Source: Shigella phage ESh26. From it: a stretch of 64,000 nt of DNA. The notes under the pieces were generated by a model. That model did not search any database, had not been told where the DNA came from, and saw nothing but the letters and a program-made list of their open reading frames with translations. The DNA is taken from the sequence record ON528736. One strand, written 5' to 3'. This document shows positions 4,740 through 52,282 of this stretch, piece after piece. The position numbers and the translations under genes are program-made. The first letter of the stretch is position 1. Each line of letters starts with the position of its first letter.

Positions 4740-5582
4740 TTAATCGACTGCTATTGGATGAATAGCATTAAACTTATGAAACGCTTCTGATTTTTCTTTG
4801 CGTGAAACACACATGCGAAGAACCTTTAATGGCTCGTCTTCTTCACCCAACGATTTTCTCTTTTCGATATTCGATGTTTTCCAACGAGCTTGCTCTGGAA
4901 ACTCTCTATTGATTTGCTCAAGAGCTCTATTATGTTTTGAATTACTACGAATTGAACTACATCCGCCAGGAGCTTGTGCTTTTCCAGATACAACCAGATA
5001 TTTGAACAAGGCCAAATGCGGATAACCTTGATTAATTAAATTGAGAAATGCATACATATCTTCGCATAAATCAATTTTTCCATACCCAATTTGTTCTGTC
5101 GTGAGTTTTCCAAGGTCATACCATGTATTCGTGAATCCATATGAATTTTCACGATAATTACCCCAAGATGAAGTAATTTTAAAAATTGGTAGACGAGCAT
5201 GGCCATGATAATACCCACAATCCATGGCATCTTCAACGTATTGAATCAATTCATAGAACTGTTCACGAGTTAATTGATTAATTTTATCTACACAGCGACG
5301 ATCATCTTTCTTTCGCATTGAACTCATACGAATAGTAGTATCATCGTCAATCATCCAGATTCGTTGACCTGCATACATATCAGTAATTGCTTTACGAGTA
5401 CCAGCAATTCCATTAACATCATCAGGAATAGTTATAATTTTGGCTTTAGACCCGTAAGCGTCATAATAAGCTTTTTCTTCGTGTTCACGTACTACAATAT
5501 GAGGTTCATAATCAGTCGGAAACATATCAAGGGCAGAAACTGCCCCTACGCGTTGATAGCTTGGAATTACGAATTGAATCAT
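4740..5582 (-). CDS. DNA glycosyltransferase, not T4 beta-gt; possibly T2/T6-type beta-1,6-glucosyl-alpha-glucose transferase
   Basis: 280 aa from ATG 5580-5582 (track start 5588 is GTG); DxD-like motif WMIDDDTTI; occupies beta-gt locus between uvsX and 42. Confidence 0.5.
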   Translation of the reverse strand: MIQFVIPSYQRVGAVSALDMFPTDYEPHIVVREHEEKAYYDAYGSKAKIITIPDDVNGIAGTRKAITDMYAGQRIWMIDDDTTIRMSSMRKKDDRRCVDKINQLTREQFYELIQYVEDAMDCGYYHGHARLPIFKITSSWGNYRENSYGFTNTWYDLGKLTTEQIGYGKIDLCEDMYAFLNLINQGYPHLALFKYLVVSGKAQAPGGCSSIRSNSKHNRALEQINREFPEQARWKTSNIEKRKSLGEEDEPLKVLRMCVSRKEKSEAFHKFNAIHPIAVD

Positions 5583-6319
5583 TTCCACTCACCATTATAA
5601 TCTTTTTTCACAATATGAGTTTCGCCAGTATTCCACCAATGATCAACCAAGTAAAAATGACGAGAATATACATGAAGACTTCCAACATTCCATATAATAG
5701 AACCTGCTTTATACTGACGAGTTGAATCACCTGCATTCAAATCAGATACTAATTTATCTAGTACGTATTTTTGCCATGCATAATCATTACGGAATCCGAA
5801 GACAACGTCATTTGAACGCATGCTCACTACTGCATTGACTTTCTTATCACGAATCAGGTACTGTACTGTATTCGTACACATGAAATCTGACATACCATCT
5901 TTATTGTAGTCAAACTGCATGGATGGACGAGTATAAATCATGATACCGCGTCGAGAATCAGGATTTTGACCAAGTTCAGCTAAACACATATCATATTGGG
6001 CATAGTTATCTTCTGACCAGATGGCCCAACCATAATTCGAATTAATTTCGCCTTTAGAAGATGCTACCTGTTGCCAAATCTTCGGTGTTTCACCTGGAAT
6101 ATCTTTAACAAACAAACTTTTAGATTTATACCATTCAAGTTCACGCTGAATGTATTCATCATTAAGAGCGCCAAAAATAAATGGTTCATCTGCTACAAAT
6201 GATGCGCCAATAATTTCAATAGTTTTAACGCCAGTTTTATCAACTACGAAATCTTTTTCCTTTAATGCAAGCCCCAAATGAAGACGGATTTCTTCAACTG
6301 TCATAGAGTCACTAATCAT
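5579..6319 (-). CDS. 42: dCMP hydroxymethylase gp42
   Basis: 246 aa, thymidylate-synthase-like fold, T4 synteny. Confidence 0.9.
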   Translation of the reverse strand: MISDSMTVEEIRLHLGLALKEKDFVVDKTGVKTIEIIGASFVADEPFIFGALNDEYIQRELEWYKSKSLFVKDIPGETPKIWQQVASSKGEINSNYGWAIWSEDNYAQYDMCLAELGQNPDSRRGIMIYTRPSMQFDYNKDGMSDFMCTNTVQYLIRDKKVNAVVSMRSNDVVFGFRNDYAWQKYVLDKLVSDLNAGDSTRQYKAGSIIWNVGSLHVYSRHFYLVDHWWNTGETHIVKKDYNGEWK

Positions 6320-6472
6320 TTAAACCTCAATTGATACATTCATATTTAACTTGTAACAGTAATAAACCCCAACCTATAATAAGTGTCGGAATCATACAAG
6401 GAACCGTTACGCTATAGTATATACTTATTATAATCATCAAGATTAAAAGCAATACTGCTAAAATTTTGCTTT

Positions 6473-6724
6473 TCATTCCTTCTCTCTGATGATAATTACT
6501 TGATTCGGTTGTGCAGATTTTTTAGTTTCACCCGCAATTGACCAAATAAATGTAATAAACCAACCAATAATTGACCAATTAAACAGTAAAGATGTGAAAA
6601 AGATTCCTACTGTCGATTTTGACCCACGCATCAAGGCGATGAACCACGGAAGCATGTATATAATGATAGCCAACACGCCTGAAACTAAAACCATAAAAAT
6701 TGAACCTGCTACTAAAGTTTCCAT
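6473..6724 (-). CDS. imm: immunity to superinfection membrane protein Imm
   Basis: 83 aa, two hydrophobic helices, position between 43 and 42. Confidence 0.8.
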   Translation of the reverse strand: METLVAGSIFMVLVSGVLAIIIYMLPWFIALMRGSKSTVGIFFTSLLFNWSIIGWFITFIWSIAGETKKSAQPNQVIIIREKE

Positions 6725-6731
6725 GTTTTCC

Positions 6732-7112
6732 TCACTTAGTCAAATTTTTTACACATGAATTATAAGAATTCACTACATACTCCATCGGAGCATTTTTACC
6801 GGTACGCCATTGGTAATTATTAGCCCAATTAGCCCAAAGTTCGGCGCAGTAGTTTTCAATTTTTTCTTCGCGTGTAATTACATCTGAATTACGATATGCT
6901 TGAGCAGATTCATCTGGACGAATAGCTTCGTCAAAATTCGCCTGCATTTGTTCTACTGTCTGTTTTGGAGCTTCTTTATAACACTTGACGTTAGGATTAT
7001 AAAATTTGCTTGAACAGTTTACAATTTTTCCTACATCAGATTGATTTACTACCGGTCCTTGAGCTACACAGCCAGTAAGACCCAATGTAATAACCAAAAT
7101 AGCAATTTTCAT
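6732..7112 (-). CDS. predicted lipoprotein
   Basis: 126 aa, signal peptide with lipobox LTGC. Confidence 0.5.
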   Translation of the reverse strand: MKIAILVITLGLTGCVAQGPVVNQSDVGKIVNCSSKFYNPNVKCYKEAPKQTVEQMQANFDEAIRPDESAQAYRNSDVITREEKIENYCAELWANWANNYQWRTGKNAPMEYVVNSYNSCVKNLTK

Positions 7113-32468: not shown

Positions 32469-32771
32469 CTAAAAGAAACTTCTTTCACAATTTTTTCCAC
32501 TGAACCAGGCGCTCACTGCTTTCTTAGTCTCAGGAGCAGTGTTATCCATAAACCATTCAAAGGCAGCCTTTTTATGATTCTGGAGGGCTTCTCGGGCTTT
32601 AATCTGCTCACGGTCTATTAACACTAACATATGAGCCTTTCTTGACACCATGGGCTTCTTATGATTTTTTGAATACTCCCAGTCATTTGTCCATCGCATT
32701 GTCGTTGCGAACTGAAATACTGCTTCTTTAATTTTAGTTTCGTAAATTTCACGAGCCTTTGAGTATAACAT
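32469..32771 (-). CDS. hypothetical protein
   Basis: 100 aa from ATG 32769-32771 preceded by GGAGG. Confidence 0.4.
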   Translation of the reverse strand: MLYSKAREIYETKIKEAVFQFATTMRWTNDWEYSKNHKKPMVSRKAHMLVLIDREQIKAREALQNHKKAAFEWFMDNTAPETKKAVSAWFSGKNCERSFF

Positions 32772-32872
32772 CATTACCTCCATTCACCAGTTTAATTCTA
32801 GTCATCTTTTTAATGGCAGTCCATATAATCTATTTCTGAACTGCCTTTTTGTCATAGAAGTCCTCTTATGAA

Positions 32873-33841
32873 TTATTTCAGAAGAGTAACCTCAGCGATT
32901 TCTTCCCAACCGTTTTTGTCGGTCATAATAAAGTCAGCAAGATAAAGAGCAGTACGCAGTGAAACATTGCGTAAACGGTTAACATTAACTTTCATCCATG
33001 ATAATGCTTTATAAGTTTCTTCATCAGAAAGACCGCGCTTTTGCATCATGTCAGTTGAAAGAATAACATCTTCAACCCTGACCATAATTTCTTCATTAGT
33101 GTGAACACCCAAATCTAAATAAACCGAGCGGGACACTAATGCTTGTAAATGTGGAGCAAGTTTAGTACCACGGTCTAATTCGCGGTCAATGTCAACGTTT
33201 GTGATAAAAACAATCGTTCCTTTAAATTCAAACTCACGCTCAATGCCTTTTTCTTCTAAGTAAGAAGACGCAGTGCTCCAGCAGACTTTACGGGTCTCTC
33301 CAGTGTCCAGAGCGGCTTTTAGAAGATTAAGAATGTCCATATCAGAGAAAACATCCACATCGTCAATCAAAAGGACAGAATTCTCTTCACGATTATTCCA
33401 AAGCTGCTCATAAAGACCAATACCAGAGATTTTACCATTAATGCTTTTATATTCAATGTATCCAATATCATTTGCTTTATTTAAAGCTTTATCTAAAGAA
33501 TACGTTTTACCAATACCTGCTGCTCCTGAGATAATTAATGAACGAATATTTCCGTTAATAATACCATTCGTCATCATTCCCATAACATTAAATCTTTTAT
33601 TAATGCGGGTTTTCATATCTTCATACGATTCTTTAACTTCTTCAACTTTTACACCATCATATGAAATATCTGATTTGTAAACCCAAACACCGCGACGTTT
33701 ACCGTCAATTTCAACAAAAACTTTACCATCTCCTTGCGCATCTACCGGAGCATTATCTGGGAACCATTCGCCTAAGAGCTCAAAAGTTCCAGAGATTTCT
33801 TTACCGAAGTAGATACCCTTATTGATAGTTACAGTTTTCAT
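32873..33841 (-). CDS. P-loop NTPase (Walker A/B)
   Basis: 322 aa from ATG 33839-33841; GAAGIGKTYS Walker A, VLLIDDVD Walker B; early promoter upstream. Confidence 0.55.
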   Translation of the reverse strand: MKTVTINKGIYFGKEISGTFELLGEWFPDNAPVDAQGDGKVFVEIDGKRRGVWVYKSDISYDGVKVEEVKESYEDMKTRINKRFNVMGMMTNGIINGNIRSLIISGAAGIGKTYSLDKALNKANDIGYIEYKSINGKISGIGLYEQLWNNREENSVLLIDDVDVFSDMDILNLLKAALDTGETRKVCWSTASSYLEEKGIEREFEFKGTIVFITNVDIDRELDRGTKLAPHLQALVSRSVYLDLGVHTNEEIMVRVEDVILSTDMMQKRGLSDEETYKALSWMKVNVNRLRNVSLRTALYLADFIMTDKNGWEEIAEVTLLK

Positions 33842-33873
33842 TTTATTCTCCAAATCCGTATCAGTTGATAGTT

Positions 33874-33905
33874 GTATAGTACCATAAAGCTTTATGCTTG
33901 TAAAC
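33874..33905 (-). promoter_or_regulatory. T4-type early promoter
   Basis: GTTTAC -35, GGTACTATAC -10, identical leader GGATTTGGAGAATAAAATG. Confidence 0.65.
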
Positions 33906-33935
33906 TGTTCTGTGAAAAAATTTTGAAATAAAAAA

Positions 33936-33953
33936 GGGAGCCCGAAGGCTCCC
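33936..33953 (-). terminator. rho-independent terminator after NTase gene
   Basis: minus GGGAGCC-UUCG-GGCUCCC then UUUUUU. Confidence 0.7.
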
Positions 33954-33955
33954 TA

Positions 33956-34969
33956 TCATTTATAATAACTTCGGTGGTTTTCAAGATAAACCCTCTCAAG
34001 GAAGTCATCCCAGAAACCCATATCTACTTTTTGCTGCATACCGTTCTTAGAAGCTTCAATGGATGCTGCTTCTACTTGATCGACCACATCTTCCAAAAAC
34101 TCTTGAACAGTTTTAAATGGATGTTTACCCAACTTCACGTCGAGAATAAATGGAGCGTCTTGAAGTGGATAGACTAAGTCACCAGTTTTGTAAATTTCCA
34201 ATAGTTGGAGTCCACCACGACAAGCATGACTCAGAGCTTTCCAGTCAATGCCCTCATTCGCTTCAGCCTTACGAGCACGTTCGCCGTATTCAGCATCAAG
34301 TTTATTCAAAGATTGCTTAAGCTCGATAAGAGAAAGCGTTGTCTGATATTTACGACCCAACACAGTGTAGAACGTTTGTGGACCTGTTTTCTCATGATTA
34401 TGGAATACCCATTCACAGAATTCGTTTTCTGGAAGACGATGCTTAATATCTTCTACCTTAGTTCGACGTTGCTTAATAGAACCATCTTCTTGATAATCAA
34501 CCCATTGCTCAGGGATTTGATTAACTACTTTCAATACATCACGTAATGCGGCCAAACGAGAACCCTTAACACCGTATTTAGAAGCTTGCTTGCGAACATA
34601 TCCTAAATAGGATTTCATGTTAGTTGTATAAAAACGAGAACGATTGTCTTGAATAAACTTCCATACATCAGGCAAATCAGATTTAACTACCAGTTCAGGT
34701 GGAGTATGGAGCATATCCAATGCTACAGTTTCACCATCTGCTGCTAATTTAAAGAAATATTTAAGACTGTATAGTTCATGGTCAATATCATCTTTAGTGT
34801 TTTTAGATGATGTGTTGTTAGTGTTTTTACTCATATGCTCTTTAACATTTCCGATAAGAATATCACGAGCAGGAGGAACAAAGATTTCTTTAAAATCTAC
34901 ATCAGATTCTGGAGTAGAAGTTCCATAAAGATGACTACCAAAATAGCTTTTCATTACTGTTTTCATCAT
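33956..34969 (-). CDS. MNT/Pol-beta superfamily nucleotidyltransferase-like protein
   Basis: 337 aa; N-terminal FGSHLYGTSTPESDVDF fits GSx3Gx5SDxD signature; terminator follows stop. Confidence 0.5.
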   Translation of the reverse strand: MMKTVMKSYFGSHLYGTSTPESDVDFKEIFVPPARDILIGNVKEHMSKNTNNTSSKNTKDDIDHELYSLKYFFKLAADGETVALDMLHTPPELVVKSDLPDVWKFIQDNRSRFYTTNMKSYLGYVRKQASKYGVKGSRLAALRDVLKVVNQIPEQWVDYQEDGSIKQRRTKVEDIKHRLPENEFCEWVFHNHEKTGPQTFYTVLGRKYQTTLSLIELKQSLNKLDAEYGERARKAEANEGIDWKALSHACRGGLQLLEIYKTGDLVYPLQDAPFILDVKLGKHPFKTVQEFLEDVVDQVEAASIEASKNGMQQKVDMGFWDDFLERVYLENHRSYYK

Positions 34970-35439
34970 TCAGCCTTATATTCAATAACAGGACATACTT
35001 TAGCTTTACGTGCTTTTAAAAATTCGACGATAATAGATTTCTTGGGTTGAATAGGAGGTAAACCTTTATACGCTCTATCAATATTTTCTACATGTAAAGC
35101 ATAATCCTTTTTCCATTTATAATCTTTATATTTTTCATGCAGTTGTGCAGGAATAACAAATGAACCAATAATAAGTAAAACAAGCAAAATGGCAAGTATA
35201 AATGCTGATGGAATAAGAGTCCATAAACTACCAAAAATAAGCCATTTCTGTATGATTTCTGCGCAGATAATAGTTAGACCTGCGAGCATAGTACATCCGA
35301 ATAAAGAAACGAAAAATGTAGGGATAACAATAGACCAAAAATACGCGCACAGTGTCTTAGGTCGTTTCCATTCGTCGTTAAACATTTTGAATAATTTATA
35401 ATGCCAAGAGTTTTCATTAATAACCATAATTATAATCAT
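34966..35439 (-). CDS. multi-pass membrane protein
   Basis: 157 aa, 3 hydrophobic helices. Confidence 0.45.
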   Translation of the reverse strand: MIIIMVINENSWHYKLFKMFNDEWKRPKTLCAYFWSIVIPTFFVSLFGCTMLAGLTIICAEIIQKWLIFGSLWTLIPSAFILAILLVLLIIGSFVIPAQLHEKYKDYKWKKDYALHVENIDRAYKGLPPIQPKKSIIVEFLKARKAKVCPVIEYKAE

Positions 35440-35957
35440 CCTTTCATTGAAGGTGTAACAGTTGTTAAATACTTAATCATAGCTTCAGCTTCTGATTTTG
35501 ATAATGAAATTTCTCCATTGTTTTGACGAATAGAAATAAAATCCGGATGACGGTCACCACCAGCTTTTAAAATACACATATAAGTATCAGTTTCATCTTC
35601 AATATCTGAAATAATTGAAGCAGTTCCACATGAATGTGGTTTTTGATAAATCAATGCAGCTTTTCTTCCACCGTTTGACTGTTCATAAACTTTTAACACA
35701 TCAAACAAATCGCTTCTTTTATCAATAGCTAAGATGTTGTTTTCATCTTCAATGTTAAATCCTTCGGATACTTCATAAAGTGTCACCCATAAATCACCAA
35801 TATCAATAACAGCGTTCACCTTTCCATGATTTTCAAGCGTATGACAAATTTTCTTAATTTCATCATAACTCATTTTAATAATATCATCTCCTTGAATAAG
35901 AAAGATGTCATTTTTAAATTCAACACGAATTAAACCACTTCCACTTGAAATAAACAT
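35436..35957 (-). CDS. hypothetical protein, paralog of next gene
   Basis: 173 aa, C-term SKSEAEAMIKYLTTVTPSMKG. Confidence 0.45.
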   Translation of the reverse strand: MFISSGSGLIRVEFKNDIFLIQGDDIIKMSYDEIKKICHTLENHGKVNAVIDIGDLWVTLYEVSEGFNIEDENNILAIDKRSDLFDVLKVYEQSNGGRKAALIYQKPHSCGTASIISDIEDETDTYMCILKAGGDRHPDFISIRQNNGEISLSKSEAEAMIKYLTTVTPSMKG

Positions 35958-35963
35958 ATTTCC

Positions 35964-36530
35964 TCACTTTGAAATCATAGTTGGAATGACAGAATCAAGA
36001 TAAGTCTTTAGCGCAATAGCTTCGTCTTTAGTAAATGTAACAATATGCGATCGAAAATCGTCAATTTGACGAATAGTTAAGACATCTCCATCTTCATAGC
36101 ATTTTGACACATTTAAAACAGTTTCATCATTTTGATCGCACTGATCGCAAGCGTTAGTAATAATAGCATTGCAATTTTTGAGCCATTTTAAACTATGTTT
36201 TCTTTCATTAGAATAATAAAAATATTTAATGTAAGTTATAAAATTATCCCAATTATTAATTGATAAACACATTGACTCACTTTTAATATTAAATCCTGGG
36301 CATGAAGAATAAAAATGAATTTTGTGCTCATCATTGATGCTTACTATTTTATCAGTATAAGGATATTCAATTTGGGTTAAATGAATGATTTCACTAGGCA
36401 TAAAATACAGCATATCGTCTTCTTGTGTCAAACGATACATGTTATTTACTTTTTCTATAGCCAATTCGCCAAAAAGCGGACTAACTTCTAATACTAATCG
36501 TTTCATATTGATTCTCTTCGACTCACTCAC
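35964..36530 (-). CDS. hypothetical protein, paralog of previous gene
   Basis: 188 aa, C-term TKDEAIALKTYLDSVIPTMISK. Confidence 0.45.
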   Translation of the reverse strand: MSESKRINMKRLVLEVSPLFGELAIEKVNNMYRLTQEDDMLYFMPSEIIHLTQIEYPYTDKIVSINDEHKIHFYSSCPGFNIKSESMCLSINNWDNFITYIKYFYYSNERKHSLKWLKNCNAIITNACDQCDQNDETVLNVSKCYEDGDVLTIRQIDDFRSHIVTFTKDEAIALKTYLDSVIPTMISK

Positions 36531-36663
36531 AATTACATACTCCTTTGAATAATATCAATAATGTTGTTCACCAAATTATACGTAAACATTGGGTAATTAT
36601 ATTGAATCATCACATACACAACAAACAAAACTTTCATTCTCTTCTCCTTGGCAGTTGACAAGA

Positions 36664-36695
36664 TTACTATACCATAACCTTGCCAACTTGTAAAC
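36664..36695 (-). promoter_or_regulatory. T4-type early promoter
   Basis: GTTTAC -35, GGTATAGTAAT -10; drives small ORF 36533-36637 and the operon below. Confidence 0.55.
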
Positions 36696-36860
36696 CATTA
36701 AATGACGTTTTCAATAAAATTCTGAAGCTTTGTGTGAGCATCAACCATGATTTTCATTTCTTCCTTTGCGAAAGCTGTACCTCTTTCCCGAGCAGAATAC
36801 TCATAGTCAGAAACTGCGTTAGCATATTCTTCAATTAGCTTCATTAAAAACATCTGCTTT

Positions 36861-37055
36861 TCAGTTTTCATTATTCCACCTAATCATTTCAAGATATTGA
36901 ACTAACTTAGCTTTGGATTTATCCAAATCCTTTTTAGCTGCTTCTATACCATCGTATGAGTATCCTTCACAATGCTCAACTGCCAATTGGTATGAATCTA
37001 TTTCAATATCACGTGCTAATTTAATGATTTTTTCAAACTGTTCACGTGTTAGCAT
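36861..37055 (-). CDS. small acidic protein
   Basis: 64 aa ORF. Confidence 0.4.
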   Translation of the reverse strand: MLTREQFEKIIKLARDIEIDSYQLAVEHCEGYSYDGIEAAKKDLDKSKAKLVQYLEMIRWNNEN

Positions 37056-37057
37056 AC

Positions 37058-37297
37058 TTAAACTCTCGTATTATGATCGATAATTTCATCAAGAAACATA
37101 TCTAAAGCTTCTACAGCATTATCAACTTTAGCTTCAAGTTCTTCAGCACCTTTATTTGCAATGCCTGCCGAAAACCAAGCAAAGTCACTAAGTTCCTCAT
37201 CTGCTTTGCGAATTAAAGCTACCAATTCTTTAATTTTATCTGCTTGTTCAATGCTAATCATTATTCCACCACATATGAAAGAGAGAATATTGCACAC
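37058..37297 (-). CDS. small acidic protein
   Basis: 79 aa ORF. Confidence 0.4.
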
Positions 37298-37449
37298 GCC
37301 ATATGAGTTGCAGCTTCATCACACATACTATAGCGTTTCTTAAGAAATTCTACAAGTTCTTCACTAGTAACTTCATCCATGTCGACGAAAAAATCACCAT
37401 TAATGATGACGTAGATATTTCCTTCTTGATTAAGTGCTTCAATTTTCAT
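37261..37449 (-). CDS. small protein
   Basis: 62 aa from ATG 37447-37449 with SD; track start is TTG. Confidence 0.4.
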
Positions 37450-37473
37450 GATGTTCTCCTCTTTATCCGATAG

Positions 37474-37507
37474 TTGTATAGTATCACAGCTCAAATGGAA
37501 AGTAAAC
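37474..37507 (-). promoter_or_regulatory. T4-type early promoter
   Basis: GTTTAC -35, GATACTATAC -10. Confidence 0.6.
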
Positions 37508-37522
37508 CGGTAAAATGAAAAA

Positions 37523-37540
37523 AGTCTCCCGAAGGAGACT
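37523..37540 (-). terminator. rho-independent terminator
   Basis: minus AGUCUCC-UUCG-GGAGACU then UUUUUU. Confidence 0.7.
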
Positions 37541-37544
37541 AATG

Positions 37545-37931
37545 TTATTCGAGGGAAAGAAGATATTTGCTCTGGTAAAACATCCCAGTAATATCATCTA
37601 TCGTGCTTTGAATGGCTGGAGGCATTTCTTTATAAATGCTGTTCGATTGGTCTAGTATGCGATCAATCATTTTAATTGTGTCGGTAGGAAGTTTACTGGC
37701 ATCTGGAATAGAAGGCGTGTATTTTCTACCAGAATACCCCAAATATTGCTCACCAAATTTATCAATCAAATCTGGCAACTCAGAGAAAATAAAATCGTAT
37801 GCTTTGTGTCTAGCATAACTTTTAGTTTCAAAATGTGCAGAATGAAAATAAGCTTGTGCAGCCATTAATAAACCTAAGTATTCATCTGCCTTTGAAGGTT
37901 TTCCACTTTGTGAAAAGTCGCTGAATTTCAT
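37545..37931 (-). CDS. hypothetical protein downstream of rI
   Basis: 128 aa, terminator after stop. Confidence 0.45.
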
Positions 37932-38221
37932 TCAGTCTCCAATTTAATGTTCATAATTCTAGCGTATGATTGTGCCATCTCCGCGCCTCGCTCTATACAT
38001 TCAAAATCGGAAGAGCACGGGTCATTTTTATAAGTCGTTCGCATAAAACTATAGAACTGTTCAGATGATTCTACGCTTTTATTTTCAAAAAGCATATAAA
38101 CGTGTCTAATACCAGATTCCATAAATTTATCAAAATGAGGATCGACATTCGCTTCAATCGGTGGAGACAAAGCAAATGCTAATCCTAGCATGGCAAATAG
38201 TGCCGTTGCTTTTAAGGCCAT
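37928..38221 (-). CDS. rI: lysis inhibition regulator RI
   Basis: 97 aa MALKATALFAMLGLAFALSPPIEANVDPHFDKFMESGIRHVYML..., matches recalled T4 RI. Confidence 0.85.
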   Translation of the reverse strand: MALKATALFAMLGLAFALSPPIEANVDPHFDKFMESGIRHVYMLFENKSVESSEQFYSFMRTTYKNDPCSSDFECIERGAEMAQSYARIMNIKLETE

Positions 38222-38233
38222 AAAGGCCTCCTA

Positions 38234-38446
38234 TCATTTTTGTCCTGTATTTACTTTATGCCGATGCACGGCCTTAACTTTATCAAGGTATTTTTCAAAA
38301 TTTCGCAATCTAGTATAGTCTGCCGGAGATTGGTTGAGTGATACTTCTCGACGCAAAGCTGAAATGATATTTCCAACTTCCCTACGAATTTCATCTAATT
38401 GAAGAACAGTAAGATTGCGAAGTTGCTTTTCAGTTAATTGTAGCAT
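38234..38446 (-). CDS. hypothetical protein
   Basis: 70 aa ORF between tk and rI. Confidence 0.45.
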
Positions 38447-38488
38447 ATATACCCCTTTAGTTAGATAAACCTATTTATAACTTTTGCA

Positions 38489-39070
38489 CTAACCGAGCTT
38501 TTTAGTTAATTCATTCCAATGTTTTCTACACAAAGAAACATAAATTTCATCACCAATACAGATTTGATTGCCTTCTTTAACTGGTGTTCCATCTTCCATT
38601 AATCGAGCTGTCATAATAGCTTTTTTACCACAATGACAAACTGCTTTTAGTTCAATAAGTTTATCTGCAATCGCCAAAAGTTCTTTAGAACCTTCAAATA
38701 ATTTTCCAGCGAAATCAGTCCTTAGCCCATAAGCCATAACAGGAACATTATATGTATCAACAATTCGGCTTAATTGATGCACCTGTTCAGTTTTTAAAAA
38801 CTGGGCTTCATCTACAAATACACAATGAATATCTTTTTGTGCTTCAGCCCATTTATAGAACTCAAAAATATCCATATCATCCGTAATAATATTCGCTTCC
38901 TGTTTAATTCCAATGCGAGAAACGACTTCACAGACAGAATCGCGAGTATCAATAGCAGGCTTAAGAACTAATACACCCATTCCGCGTTCTTTATAATTAT
39001 GCGCAGCAGTCAAAAGAGAAGCAGATTTTCCAGCATTCATTGCTGCATAAGTAAAAATTAAACTCGCCAT
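38489..39070 (-). CDS. tk: thymidine kinase
   Basis: 193 aa, P-loop AMNAGKS, C-terminal Zn ribbon. Confidence 0.9.
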   Translation of the reverse strand: MASLIFTYAAMNAGKSASLLTAAHNYKERGMGVLVLKPAIDTRDSVCEVVSRIGIKQEANIITDDMDIFEFYKWAEAQKDIHCVFVDEAQFLKTEQVHQLSRIVDTYNVPVMAYGLRTDFAGKLFEGSKELLAIADKLIELKAVCHCGKKAIMTARLMEDGTPVKEGNQICIGDEIYVSLCRKHWNELTKKLG

Positions 39071-51154: not shown

Positions 51155-51230
51155 CTCACTTAATTGGTCGAGGCAGTAGGGATCGAACCTACGACCTAGG
51201 ACTTAGAAGGTCCTTGCTCTTCCTTCTGAG
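51155..51230 (-). tRNA. tRNA-Arg (anticodon UCU)
   Basis: hand-folded cloverleaf, 76 nt, T-loop TTCGATC, CCA encoded. Confidence 0.85.
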
Positions 51231-51234
51231 CTAT

Positions 51235-51310
51235 GCCCCGTAATTGGGGTGACCGATGGGGGTCGAACCCATGACTACGAGAATCACAATCTCGAGTTCT
51301 ACCAACTGAA
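51235..51310 (-). tRNA. tRNA-His (anticodon GUG), no encoded G-1
   Basis: hand-folded, 7 bp acceptor GTGGCCG/CGGTCAC, C73, CCA encoded. Confidence 0.75.
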
Positions 51311-51423
51311 CTACGGCCACATTAATACCTACTCCAACAATCAAGATGTCTTCACACGAAATTAAGAGAAGAGTGATCAGTTCAACCCTATAATCGCGTC
51401 AAGTAGATATTAATGTGACAGTT
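51311..51423 (-). ncRNA. 113 nt spacer inside tRNA cluster, possible small stable RNA
   Basis: no ORF; palindrome TGTGACAGTTGTCACA; lies between tRNA-Asn and tRNA-His. Confidence 0.2.
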
Positions 51424-51498
51424 GTCACAAATTTGGCGGACGTGATAGGATTCGAACCTATAACCAATCGCTTAACAGGCGATCGCTCTGCCATTGAG
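51424..51498 (-). tRNA. tRNA-Asn (anticodon GUU)
   Basis: hand-folded, 75 nt, anticodon loop CTGTTAA, CCA encoded. Confidence 0.8.
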
Positions 51499-51502
51499 CT
51501 AC

Positions 51503-51589
51503 ACATCCAAATTGGTGGGGAGTGATGGAGTCGAACCACCCGAGTCGCAATGACAATGGATTTACAGTCCACACCGCTACCTCTACGGG
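51503..51589 (-). tRNA. tRNA-Tyr (anticodon GUA), long variable arm
   Basis: hand-folded, 87 nt, loop CTGTAAA, class II variable arm. Confidence 0.8.
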
Positions 51590-51602
51590 ATAACTCCCCT
51601 TA

Positions 51603-51677
51603 ATTCTTAATTTGGTGGCCCTGGGTGGAATTGAACCACCATCTGGCGATTATGAGTCGCTTGCTTGAACCTTCCAG
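51603..51677 (-). tRNA. tRNA with CAU anticodon (Ile-lysidine type by position, or Met)
   Basis: hand-folded, 75 nt; follows Thr as tRNA-Ile does in T4. Confidence 0.75.
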
Positions 51678-51678
51678 C

Positions 51679-51754
51679 TACAGGGCCTTGGTGCTGATTG
51701 ACGGAATCGAACCGCCGACCTTCTCATTACAAGTGAGTTGCTCTACCTACTGAG
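51679..51754 (-). tRNA. tRNA-Thr (anticodon UGU)
   Basis: hand-folded, 76 nt, loop CTTGTAA. Confidence 0.85.
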
Positions 51755-51759
51755 CTAAA

Positions 51760-51849
51760 TCAGCAAAACTGGCGGAGGCGATAGGATTTGAACCTATGAG
51801 TCGCCGGAGCGACTGCCGGTTTTCAAGACCGGTGCATTAAACCACTCTG
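51760..51849 (-). tRNA. tRNA-Ser (anticodon UGA), long variable arm
   Basis: hand-folded, 90 nt. Confidence 0.85.
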
Positions 51850-51851
51850 CC

Positions 51852-51925
51852 ACGCCTCCAGTCTCCATACAAGGATTTGAACCTTGGACCTCCTGATCCC
51901 AAATCAGGCGCTCTACCAAACTGAG
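51852..51925 (-). tRNA. tRNA-Pro (anticodon UGG), CCA not encoded
   Basis: hand-folded, 74 nt, loop TTTGGGA. Confidence 0.8.
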
Positions 51926-51935
51926 CTACACGGAG

Positions 51936-52101
<166 letters not shown>

Positions 52102-52102
52102 C

Positions 52103-52175
52103 CATTCTCGCGCTGGGAATAAAGGACTCGAACCTTTGCATCCTGGAATCAAAATCCAGTGCCTTACCAACTTGG
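52103..52175 (-). tRNA. tRNA-Gln (anticodon UUG), CCA not encoded
   Basis: hand-folded, 73 nt, 5' UGGGAAU. Confidence 0.85.
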
Positions 52176-52282
52176 CTAATTCCCAATTATTAACAAAGGC
52201 TCTTAAGCAAGAACCCTTGATGATAGAGGGTATTAATCAGTGCGATATGAGTTAATAATAACAAATAATTCTTAAAGCATAT

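Follow-up and report, generated by a model that had tools for sequence, protein, structure and literature searches.

The Pnkp and Rnl1 pathway of phage T4 was the first RNA repair system to be described. RloC-type nucleases have been proposed to evade Pnkp-Rnl1 repair by removing the wobble nucleotide, and the RlaP family (RNA ligase-associating Polβ nucleotidyltransferases, NTases; Pfam PF10127) was reportedly named by Burroughs and Aravind in 2016. [quoted passage not shown] The RlaPs of phages are predicted to act with RNA ligases in tRNA repair (PMC7824862).

In T4, a nucleotidyltransferase domain was assigned to nrdC.11 in 2006 (PMC1524935), and a December 2025 preprint named T4 NrdC.11 as an RlaP of cluster 5 (PMC12776372). 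The RefSeq annotation of NrdC.11 is also "nucleotidyltransferase". The T4 region from nrdC.11 to mobD.3 can be deleted (PMC9825161), which fits an accessory gene. A preliminary description of the locus studied here recognised no characterised T4 function in it; this is right as far as experiments on T4 NrdC.11 go, but the domain, the family and the RefSeq label had all been assigned earlier.

The window that we analysed is a stretch of 64,000 nucleotides from Shigella phage ESh26 (ON528736). It shares ~97% nucleotide identity with known Tequatrovirus genomes, and on sequence similarity we assign it to Tequatrovirus, the T4-like phages. The matching Tequatrovirus records are annotated at the locus as mobD.2a / mobD.1a / mobD.1 / nrdC.11 / nrdC.10, and the gene block mobD.2–mobD.1–nrdC.11 has been catalogued before in T4-like phages. 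Five closely packed open reading frames (ORFs), whose coordinates we confirmed, lie on the minus strand between a promoter-like site and a terminator. We read them as one transcription unit (mobD.2, mobD.1, a paralog, a membrane protein ORF and nrdC.11) that would run from a single early-type promoter to a single intrinsic terminator. The anatomy first sketched for this region is supported, with the five ORFs, the promoter-like site and the terminator all present on that strand.

The first gene of the unit is mobD.2 (36533..36637, minus strand), which encodes 34 aa from an ATG start preceded by an AAGGAG Shine-Dalgarno sequence. Its product matches phrog_3515 (E 6.5e-22) and carries the T4 annotation mobD.2. 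It is followed on the same strand by the gene for the MobD.1 ortholog of the T4_y05I family (35964..36530), of 188 aa from a GTG at 36530 and with an alternative ATG at 36506, the start used in many homologs. A second T4_y05I-family protein of 173 aa, a paralog of MobD.1, is encoded at 35436..35957 (minus strand), and a small membrane protein of 157 aa at 34966..35439 (minus strand; alternative start at 35427). The last gene (33956..34969, minus strand) encodes NrdC.11, a 337-aa Polβ-type nucleotidyltransferase of the RlaP family (PF10127). Start and stop codons had been said to overlap throughout; ATGA overlaps occur at two of the four junctions (173-aa protein to membrane protein, and membrane protein to NrdC.11), whereas 2 nt and 6 nt separate the ORFs at the remaining two junctions.

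NrdC.11 of T4 (NP_049709; "uncharacterized 38.9 kDa protein") is the ortholog: it has the same length, and its gene likewise separates nrdC.10 from the mobD.1 block. NrdC.11 of the window shares 99% identity with the T2 ortholog, P0001. T4 carries mobD, an HNH homing endonuclease gene, immediately upstream of nrdC.11, in the place occupied here by the genes of the 173-aa paralog and the 157-aa membrane protein. Presence and absence across phages was one of the checks suggested at the outset: an NrdC.11-type gene occurs in 1517 phage records, and also in many bacteria, tblastn located the membrane protein in 875 phage records, and the 173-aa paralog is absent from T4.

An early promoter had been placed at 36664-36695, and we found a sigma-70/T4-early-type promoter-like site at 36666..36694 on the minus strand (GTTTACA, a 17-nt spacer and a TG-extended TATAGT), immediately past the stop codon that ends mobD.2a, the ORF upstream. 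With a 10/12 match it has the top score in a scan of 6 kb (32500-38500), tied among three sites, and it alone among them has the extended TG. T4 and ime09 have exactly this promoter-like sequence. Overall, the scan was not enriched (29 sites versus 25.9 ± 4.6 in shuffled sequences), and the promoter call is made because of position and score, not statistics. Searches with strict patterns, which give a weak negative, found neither a late (TATAAATA) nor a MotA-box middle-promoter pattern inside the unit. At the other end, an intrinsic terminator lies at 33935..33954 on the minus strand (GGGAGCC-TTCG-GGCTCCC, then a T-run). The stem measures 8 bp, 6 of them G-C pairs, and the loop is TTCG; with a dG of -17.7 kcal/mol the terminator is stronger than chance (z = -3.85), in line with the terminator reported at first. 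Across the 6 kb the scan counted 9 terminator-like sites, where 2.9 ± 1.7 were expected. A separate promoter-like site for nrdC.10 (33904-33876, minus strand) lies downstream of the terminator.

NrdC.11 matches the RlaP model PF10127 at 43.8 bits (cut-off 23; E 3.3e-11), over residues 7-135 only, which correspond to model positions 23-142 of 249. It also matches phrog_388, "nucleotidyltransferase" (7e-137). In the homolog search, the 120 matches listed in a first pass were all 78% identical or more, and an exhaustive representative search gave a diverse set, with PF10127 matched by 137 of 138 diverse homologs. Across these 138 sequences G11 and S12 are invariant, and conservation is 90% or more at D23, D25, D61, D63 and D85; in the alignment, D63 falls on D75, the third Asp of canonical RlaP, which is invariant there. 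The Polβ-superfamily active site (hG[GS], DxD and a third carboxylate) is thus kept in NrdC.11, with G11-S12, D23, D25 and D63 as the predicted catalytic residues.

Structure prediction of the 337-aa protein, as had been proposed, gave an AlphaFold model with a pLDDT of 94.7, in which a Polβ-type NTase core is joined to a helical C-terminal domain. The C-terminal region of the model has a beta-rich insert (residues ~155-209) and five long helices, and the helical bundle carries the invariant residues H248 and R251. The best PDB fold matches to the model (3c18, KNTase and HalB) are all Polβ-type NTases. The conserved GS and DxD residues, the model and its fold matches together uphold the nucleotidyltransferase fold that had been claimed for this protein. 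Comparison of the single sequence and of the 138-sequence profile with the chains of a PDB set that evidently lacks PfRlaP returned nothing meaningful, and an NCBIfam scan of all six proteins gave no matches. From these sequence relationships, we classify NrdC.11 as an RlaP of the Polβ superfamily, though a divergent one.

The profile searches retained the nucleotidyltransferase signature, through PF10127, but not the MNT family to which the preliminary description had assigned the protein. The MNT model PF01909 scores 13.9 bits (cut-off 21; E 0.076), and only 2 of the 138 homologs reach E 1e-3 with the MNT/Polbeta models (PF01909 / PF18765). MNT proteins are small single-domain proteins encoded beside a HEPN partner, whereas NrdC.11 has 337 aa with a C-terminal region of ~200 residues; the neighbours of its gene encode a membrane protein and an AAA ATPase. 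We also considered that the C-terminal bundle might act as a HEPN RNase and rejected this, as the conserved pattern is H248-x-x-R251 and not Rx4-6H. Metagenomes contain a natural variant (P0130) that has lost the NTase domain through an in-frame deletion.

The Pseudomonas RlaPs and NrdC.11 have in common PF10127 and the GS...DxD...D pattern, and, judged from the model, apparently also an NTase domain at the N-terminus with a helical domain after it. NrdC.11-type proteins differ in being ~70-80 residues longer than canonical RlaP and in carrying the beta-rich insert. In hhalign comparisons (E 7.8e-8) the alignment of NrdC.11 with canonical RlaP covers 124 N-terminal columns and homology ends near residue 131. 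The C-terminal ~200 residues have no homology to canonical RlaP detectable with Pfam or by profile-profile comparison. That canonical RlaP appears alignable with the N-terminal ~130 residues only is new in the present analysis. Because the C-terminal half is divergent and contains the beta insert, the substrate and product of NrdC.11 could differ from those of RlaP, and, since the N-terminal third alone can be aligned, the characterised RlaPs are perhaps imperfect models for the phage branch. Of the fold matches, kanamycin nucleotidyltransferase / ANT(4') and 3c18 have 8-10% identity to NrdC.11 and TM-scores of 0.24-0.30; the substrates of KNTase/ANT(4') are small molecules, and there is no sequence-profile relationship to NrdC.11. 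Hailong HalB (9dbh, 9dbj), a protein of 217 aa that makes oligodeoxyadenylate signals in a defence system, is 15% identical.

We analysed the gene neighbourhoods of cellular relatives of NrdC.11, which are encoded in 156 cellular-genome stretches; 80 cellular relatives with 32-54% identity over nearly the full length were kept. Among same-strand neighbours within ±2 genes at 64 loci we found canonical RlaP (12), AAA_33 (3), RtcB (2), RtcA (RTC; 2), PNKP ligase (2) and Ro60/TROVE (2). RNA repair is the sole recurring theme of these neighbourhoods, and the association of cellular NrdC.11-type genes with RlaP, RtcB, RtcA, Pnkp-ligase and Ro60 genes is also new here. Cellular relatives of canonical RlaP likewise adjoin RtcB, RtcA and other RNA-repair genes. 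The tandem of an NrdC.11-type gene with canonical RlaP at 12 of the 64 loci hints at non-identical roles. No counterpart of mobD.2, of either y05I protein, of the membrane protein or of NrdC.10 turned up near the cellular relatives. In the phage there is no ligase or Pnkp gene in or beside the unit, and nrdC.11 is not adjacent to pseT, rnlA or rnlB.

Taking these observations together, we think it probable, with considerable room for doubt, that the unit supplies NrdC.11 as an RlaP-family RNA-end nucleotidyltransferase that restores nucleotides on damaged tRNA before ligation. In such a mechanism D23, D25 and D63 would hold two metal ions, and the enzyme would add one or two nucleotides, untemplated, to the 3'-OH of a broken RNA. 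Its chief target would be tRNA halves that an RloC-type anticodon nuclease of the host has shortened by a nucleotide, and the phage Pnkp and the 3'-OH/5'-P ligase Rnl1 could afterwards join the halves into a usable tRNA of full length. In this way nrdC.11 would provide an accessory counter-defence or RNA-repair function. That NrdC.11 shares the activity of RlaP, uses tRNA as a substrate and cooperates with Pnkp and Rnl1 is what we infer by analogy with the Pseudomonas enzymes. tRNA end repair had been listed among the possible roles of this NTase, which comes close to the best current reading. If NrdC.11 restores the wobble nucleotide, T-even phages hold a complete answer to "smart" anticodon nucleases, and a function would be gained for a gene carried by more than 1,500 sequenced phages. 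Nucleotide restoration of this kind has been proposed in earlier publications (PMC7824862, PMC12776372), and the locus is a ready test case for it, not a discovery.

The same fold and family evidence would also suit an RNA 3'-end nucleotidyltransferase that does not serve anticodon-loop repair and acts, for example, on damaged tRNA 3'-CCA ends or on host or phage transcripts marked for decay or stabilisation. PfRlaP showed little NTP specificity and labelled single-stranded RNAs as well as species of the size of rRNA and tRNA (PMC12776372), the C-terminal half of NrdC.11, being divergent, could give another RNA specificity, and expression from the promoter-like site is apparently early. Against this, the cellular neighbours are ligase and end-healing genes, which point to the repair of breaks and not to tailing, and no CCA-adding-enzyme family was matched in Pfam; we regard this alternative as unlikely. 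We hold about the same low expectation for a more elaborate version of tRNA repair, in which the NrdC.11 type would be a functionally distinct RlaP branch that has only the core in common with RlaP, has its own C-terminal substrate-binding region (H248/R251 and the beta insert) and in bacteria often stands in tandem with canonical RlaP. In T-even phages it would then supply the third activity that the Pnkp-Rnl1 pathway lacks, against nucleotide-excising anticodon nucleases such as RloC, perhaps helped by the co-transcribed, PUR/Whirly-like MobD.1 proteins as RNA-end binders.

Readings in which the substrate is not RNA fare worse. NrdC.11 might nucleotidylylate a protein or a small molecule, as MNT antitoxins do when they AMPylate HEPN toxins and KNTase/ANT when they adenylylate aminoglycosides, and so directly neutralise a host effector. 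The sub-threshold MNT model, the lack of a HEPN partner gene and of an Rx4-6H motif at H248/R251, and cellular neighbourhoods made up of RNA-repair and not toxin-antitoxin genes all speak against this, as does the observation that PfRlaP does not label E. coli proteins (PMC12776372), and we consider it quite improbable. More improbable still, to the point of being hardly credible, is that NrdC.11 makes a free oligonucleotide or nucleotide signal, for example a HalB-like oligodeoxyadenylate that would silence a Hailong-type effector as an anti-defence mimic. The resemblance to HalB is of the kind expected between any two Polβ NTase cores; identity is just 14-15%, no profile match to HalB or to any PDB chain was found, and the Pfam family and genomic context favour RNA repair. 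A PADLOC scan of the six proteins gave no hit at E ≤ 0.01, including for CD-NTase/CBASS and Hailong HalB, and links to CBASS, Thoeris or retron defences found no support.

A separate question is whether the five genes act together. The odds appear to us evenly balanced that they are a syntenic run of unrelated accessory genes under one promoter, acting independently. No operon partner occurs near the cellular NrdC.11-type genes, T4 retains nrdC.11 despite replacement of the paralog and the membrane gene by a homing endonuclease, and the y05I family (33 and 13 clusters) is confined to T-even phages of enterobacteria whereas NrdC.11 is far more widespread. On the other hand, the order y05I, membrane protein, NTase is kept in Mosigvirus with overlapping or near-abutting codons, and the genes for the membrane protein, the NTase and NrdC.10 are found together even in an Acinetobacter phage. 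The four products of the unit other than NrdC.11 are phage-lineage-specific.

The membrane protein, whose gene is immediately upstream of the NTase gene in Mosigvirus and near it in the Acinetobacter phage, matches phrog_944 "membrane protein" (4.5e-49). It had been described as having three helices; its membrane nature is supported, and hydropathy, with two long hydrophobic stretches at residues ~29-66 and 66-102, is compatible with 2-4 helices.

The paralogy of the 188-aa and 173-aa proteins and their common C-terminal motif, both noted at the start, hold up well. The two proteins are 27% identical over 179 residues (BLASTP, E=4e-10), and both match Pfam PF24449 followed by PF24448 with E values from 1e-23 to 1e-41. 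The scores are 139.5 and 81.5 bits for the 188-aa protein and 117.3 (5.2e-34) and 81.5 bits (5.5e-23) for the 173-aa protein, against cut-offs of 24.9 and 27. Both therefore have the PF24449 N-domain and the PF24448 C-domain, in that order, which define membership of T4_y05I. The residues of the C-terminal pattern Y-L-x-x-V-x-P-x-M are invariant or nearly invariant among 29 family members. A profile of the y05I family had no match among solved structures, and an internal-repeat test on the family was not significant. Structure prediction, which had been proposed for the paralogs too, gave a model of low confidence (pLDDT 57, pTM 0.46), in which the MobD.1 paralogs may have a PUR/Whirly-like single-strand nucleic-acid-binding fold; identity to PUR-alpha, Whirly and trypanosome MRP1-MRP2 is 3-9%. 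On this reading the two paralogs may bind single-stranded nucleic acid. This possible fold has likewise not been put forward before the present analysis.

Names in the databases differ from these family assignments. Many records mislabel NrdC.11 as "thioredoxin", and MobD.1 is named "molybdopterin-guanine dinucleotide biosynthesis protein" in many records.

The locus shares ~97% nucleotide identity with many genomes of Tequatrovirus (685 matching records), and annotated relatives name its genes mobD.2a, "mobD.1a", mobD.1, an RB69ORF104c-like ORF, nrdC.11 and nrdC.10. The gene block recognized in the preliminary description was confirmed, and it is the known nrdC.11/mobD.1 block. The unit spans 33935-36694 on the minus strand and comprises a promoter-like site, five ORFs and a terminator. 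A pattern scan placed the promoter-like site (GTTTACA-17 nt-TG-TATAGT) at 36694-36666. It is followed on the same strand by a 34-codon ORF (36637-36533), a 188-aa ORF (36530-35964; start GTG, alternative ATG at 36506), a 173-aa ORF (35957-35436), a 157-aa hydrophobic ORF (35439-34966), a 337-aa ORF (34969-33956) and a hairpin with a T-run (33954-33935). The genes are tightly packed as first described. The claim that start and stop codons overlap throughout was overstated because ATGA overlaps occur at only two of the four junctions (173 aa/membrane and membrane/337 aa) and the remaining two are gapped by 2 and 6 nt.

We assessed the signals flanking the unit. The terminator is convincing: its hairpin has 8 pairs (6 G-C) and a TTCG loop (dG -17.7 kcal/mol, z -3.85), and terminator-like sites are commoner across the scanned region than in shuffles (9 vs 2.9 +/- 1.7). 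The predicted promoter has the top score within 6 kb, tied among three 10/12 matches of which it alone carries the extended TG, and the same sequence is found in T4 and ime09. We grade it as plausible only, because the scan total is close to that of shuffled sequence (29 vs 25.9 sites). No late-promoter or MotA-box patterns were found inside the unit.

We compared the gene order to those of related phages. T4 has the order mobD.2 - mobD.1 - mobD (HNH homing endonuclease) - nrdC.11, and T4 MobD.1 is the ortholog of the 188-aa protein (87% identity), with only 25% identity to the 173-aa protein. T4 therefore has neither the second paralog nor the membrane gene, and the mobile endonuclease mobD occupies their place; its insertion site was given as nrdC.11/mobD.1 by Edgell and co-authors (PMC2988022). 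Mosigvirus has a single y05I gene, the membrane gene and the nucleotidyltransferase (NTase), closely abutting. Several database labels in this region are wrong, their apparent source being the names nrdC.x and mobD.x of the genes: NrdC.11 is "thioredoxin" in many records and "HNH homing endonuclease" in one, MobD.1 and MobD.4 are [quoted passage not shown], and a small ORF adjoining the block is labelled "helicase loader".

The 337-aa protein is NrdC.11, detected by tblastn in 1517 phage records with identity falling to 29% in Vibrio phages. The NTase fold proposed in the preliminary description was correct, whereas its minimal nucleotidyltransferase (MNT) label was not: the MNT-type Pfam model PF01909 scored below threshold and PF10127 (RlaP, RNA ligase-associating Polβ nucleotidyltransferase) scored 43.8 bits (cut-off 23). 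An exhaustive homolog search yielded 3421 representative clusters at E <= 1e-3, of which 138 representatives with 35-55% identity to the window protein were aligned; 137 of these match PF10127. G11, S12, Y132, H248, R251 and P268 are invariant in this alignment, and D23, D25, D61, D63, D85 and K244 are >= 90% conserved. AlphaFold gave a model of very high confidence (pLDDT 94.7, pTM 0.84), in which an alpha/beta NTase core is accompanied by a beta-rich insert (about 155-209) and, towards the C-terminus, by five long helices. Sequence searches against solved structures retrieved no related structure.

Full-length NrdC.11-type proteins were confirmed in 156 stretches of cellular genomes, of which 80 (32-54% identical) were kept. 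For 64 loci, genes were called and the same-strand +/-2 neighbours scanned against Pfam. The sole recurrent theme was RNA repair. In 12 of the 64 loci, in bacterial genomes, a canonical ~255-aa RlaP lies directly 3' of the long NrdC.11-type gene on the same strand (L011, L021, L040, L044, L056, L057, L059, L065, L074, L075 and others, at about 5950-6800 in each stretch), which suggests that the two types work as a pair. The other recurrent neighbours are AAA_33 kinase-like domains (3), RtcB (2), RtcA (2), Pnkp ligase (2) and Ro60/TROVE (2). T-even phages have the long type alone in the nrdC.11 block. In profile-profile comparison with canonical RlaPs, only the first ~124 columns of the NrdC.11 clade align (E 7.8e-8, probability 94.5%), with D63 opposite the invariant third Asp of canonical RlaP; the C-terminal ~200 residues have no detectable homology to it. 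Based on this N-terminal-only alignment and the tandem loci, the NrdC.11 type is a divergent branch that often accompanies rather than replaces canonical RlaP. The RNA-repair neighbourhoods and the N-terminal-only alignment are new in this analysis. The closest "cellular" relatives, in stretches from a Bacilli MAG (L007) and Flagellimonas marina (L008), match at 5001-6002 with 53-54% identity and are far nearer to the phage proteins than the others; these stretches may be prophages or phage contigs binned into genomes.

The RlaP interpretation is already in the literature. Nolan et al. put nrdC.11 in a nucleotidyltransferase COG in 2006 (PMC1524935), and Iyer et al. predicted that phage RlaPs put back nucleotides lost to RloC-type nucleases before ligation (PMC7824862). 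A December 2025 preprint reported that P. fluorescens and P. aeruginosa RlaPs add 1 or 2 NMP (or dNMP) onto RNA 3'-OH, not onto DNA or protein, favour cleaved-tRNA mimics and Mn2+, and partly restore aminoacylation of repaired tRNA missing a nucleotide; it listed "T4NrdC.11" as an RlaP in a separate sequence cluster, cluster 5 (PMC12776372). Given the divergence and tandem occurrence of the NrdC.11 type, we are cautious in carrying the Pseudomonas biochemistry over to the phage enzyme.

The best-supported mechanism, which we consider somewhat probable, is that NrdC.11 would extend the 3' ends of damaged RNA by 1-2 nucleotides in the manner of RlaP, and that the phage Pnkp/Rnl1 system would then ligate the extended ends. 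Family membership, the conserved catalytic residues, the fold, the cellular neighbourhoods and the biochemistry of a different RlaP cluster all point to this activity. Less supported are the tailing of other RNA ends, the nucleotidylylation of a protein or small molecule, and a HalB-like synthesis of oligonucleotides. The value of the nrdC.11 block is that it offers a clean, testable case.

The 188-aa and 173-aa proteins are paralogs (27% identity, E 4e-10). Both match phrog_1502 and, with very strong scores, PF24449 and PF24448 ("y05I-like putative transcription factor"). The shared C-terminal motif noted previously was borne out, with Y177, L178, V181 and M185 invariant and P183 >= 90% conserved. 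The family is narrow: clustering at 90% identity gave 33 and 13 clusters, exclusively from enterobacterial T-even phages. A PUR/Whirly-like single-strand-binding fold, proposed from a low-confidence model, is a lead only; a sequence-profile search with the family found no support for the fold, and an internal-repeat test was not significant. The two halves of the y05I proteins are weakly similar (hhalign E 0.005 with a probability of only 7%; about 30-52 and 150-180 in the 188-aa protein), each half having a strand that ends at an invariant Gln (Q36, Q155), then a strand and a helix. This non-significant similarity would fit a duplicated PUR-like repeat. One protein (P0291, 6 contigs) is chimeric, with an N-terminal two-thirds of the 188-aa type and a C-terminal third of the 173-aa type, a sequence arrangement indicating that the tandem paralogs recombine.

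The 157-aa protein matches phrog_944 ("membrane protein") and occurs in 875 phage records (tblastn). Its hydropathy profile has two long stretches of hydrophobic residues (about 29-66 and 66-102) followed by a basic tail. An Acinetobacter Lazarusvirus has a copy with 26% identity, placed two genes upstream of its NTase. Directly downstream of the unit is NrdC.10 (32873-33841, minus strand), with its own promoter-like site at 33904-33876. NrdC.10 is a P-loop/AAA-type ATPase that matches phrog_1250, its Pfam AAA/STAND matches being weak and sub-threshold. It is unusually conserved, with 66% identity in the Acinetobacter Lazarusvirus, where it is still near the NTase.

We asked whether the five genes form a single functional module. 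Probably they do not demonstrably do so: neither mobD.2, the y05I proteins, the membrane protein nor NrdC.10 was found beside the cellular NrdC.11 relatives, T4 manages without two of the unit's genes, and the T4 region nrdC.11-mobD.3 is deletable (PMC9825161). In addition, a metagenomic protein (P0130, 2 contigs) fuses MobD.1 residues 1-50 in frame to NrdC.11 residues 194-327; here a natural deletion of ~2 kb has removed the paralog and the membrane gene together with the catalytic domain of the NTase. The unit's genes are accessory, which is in keeping with a role in host range or counter-defence.

Eleven clustered tRNA genes lie at 51165-52185 of the window on the minus strand (Arg, His, Asn, Tyr, Met/Ile-CAT, Thr, Ser, Pro, Gly, Leu and Gln). 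T4 has 8 tRNA genes. The His, Asn and Tyr tRNAs, extra relative to T4, have GUN-type anticodons and make up three of the four tRNAs targeted by colicin E5; their presence would fit a tRNA-damage arms race.
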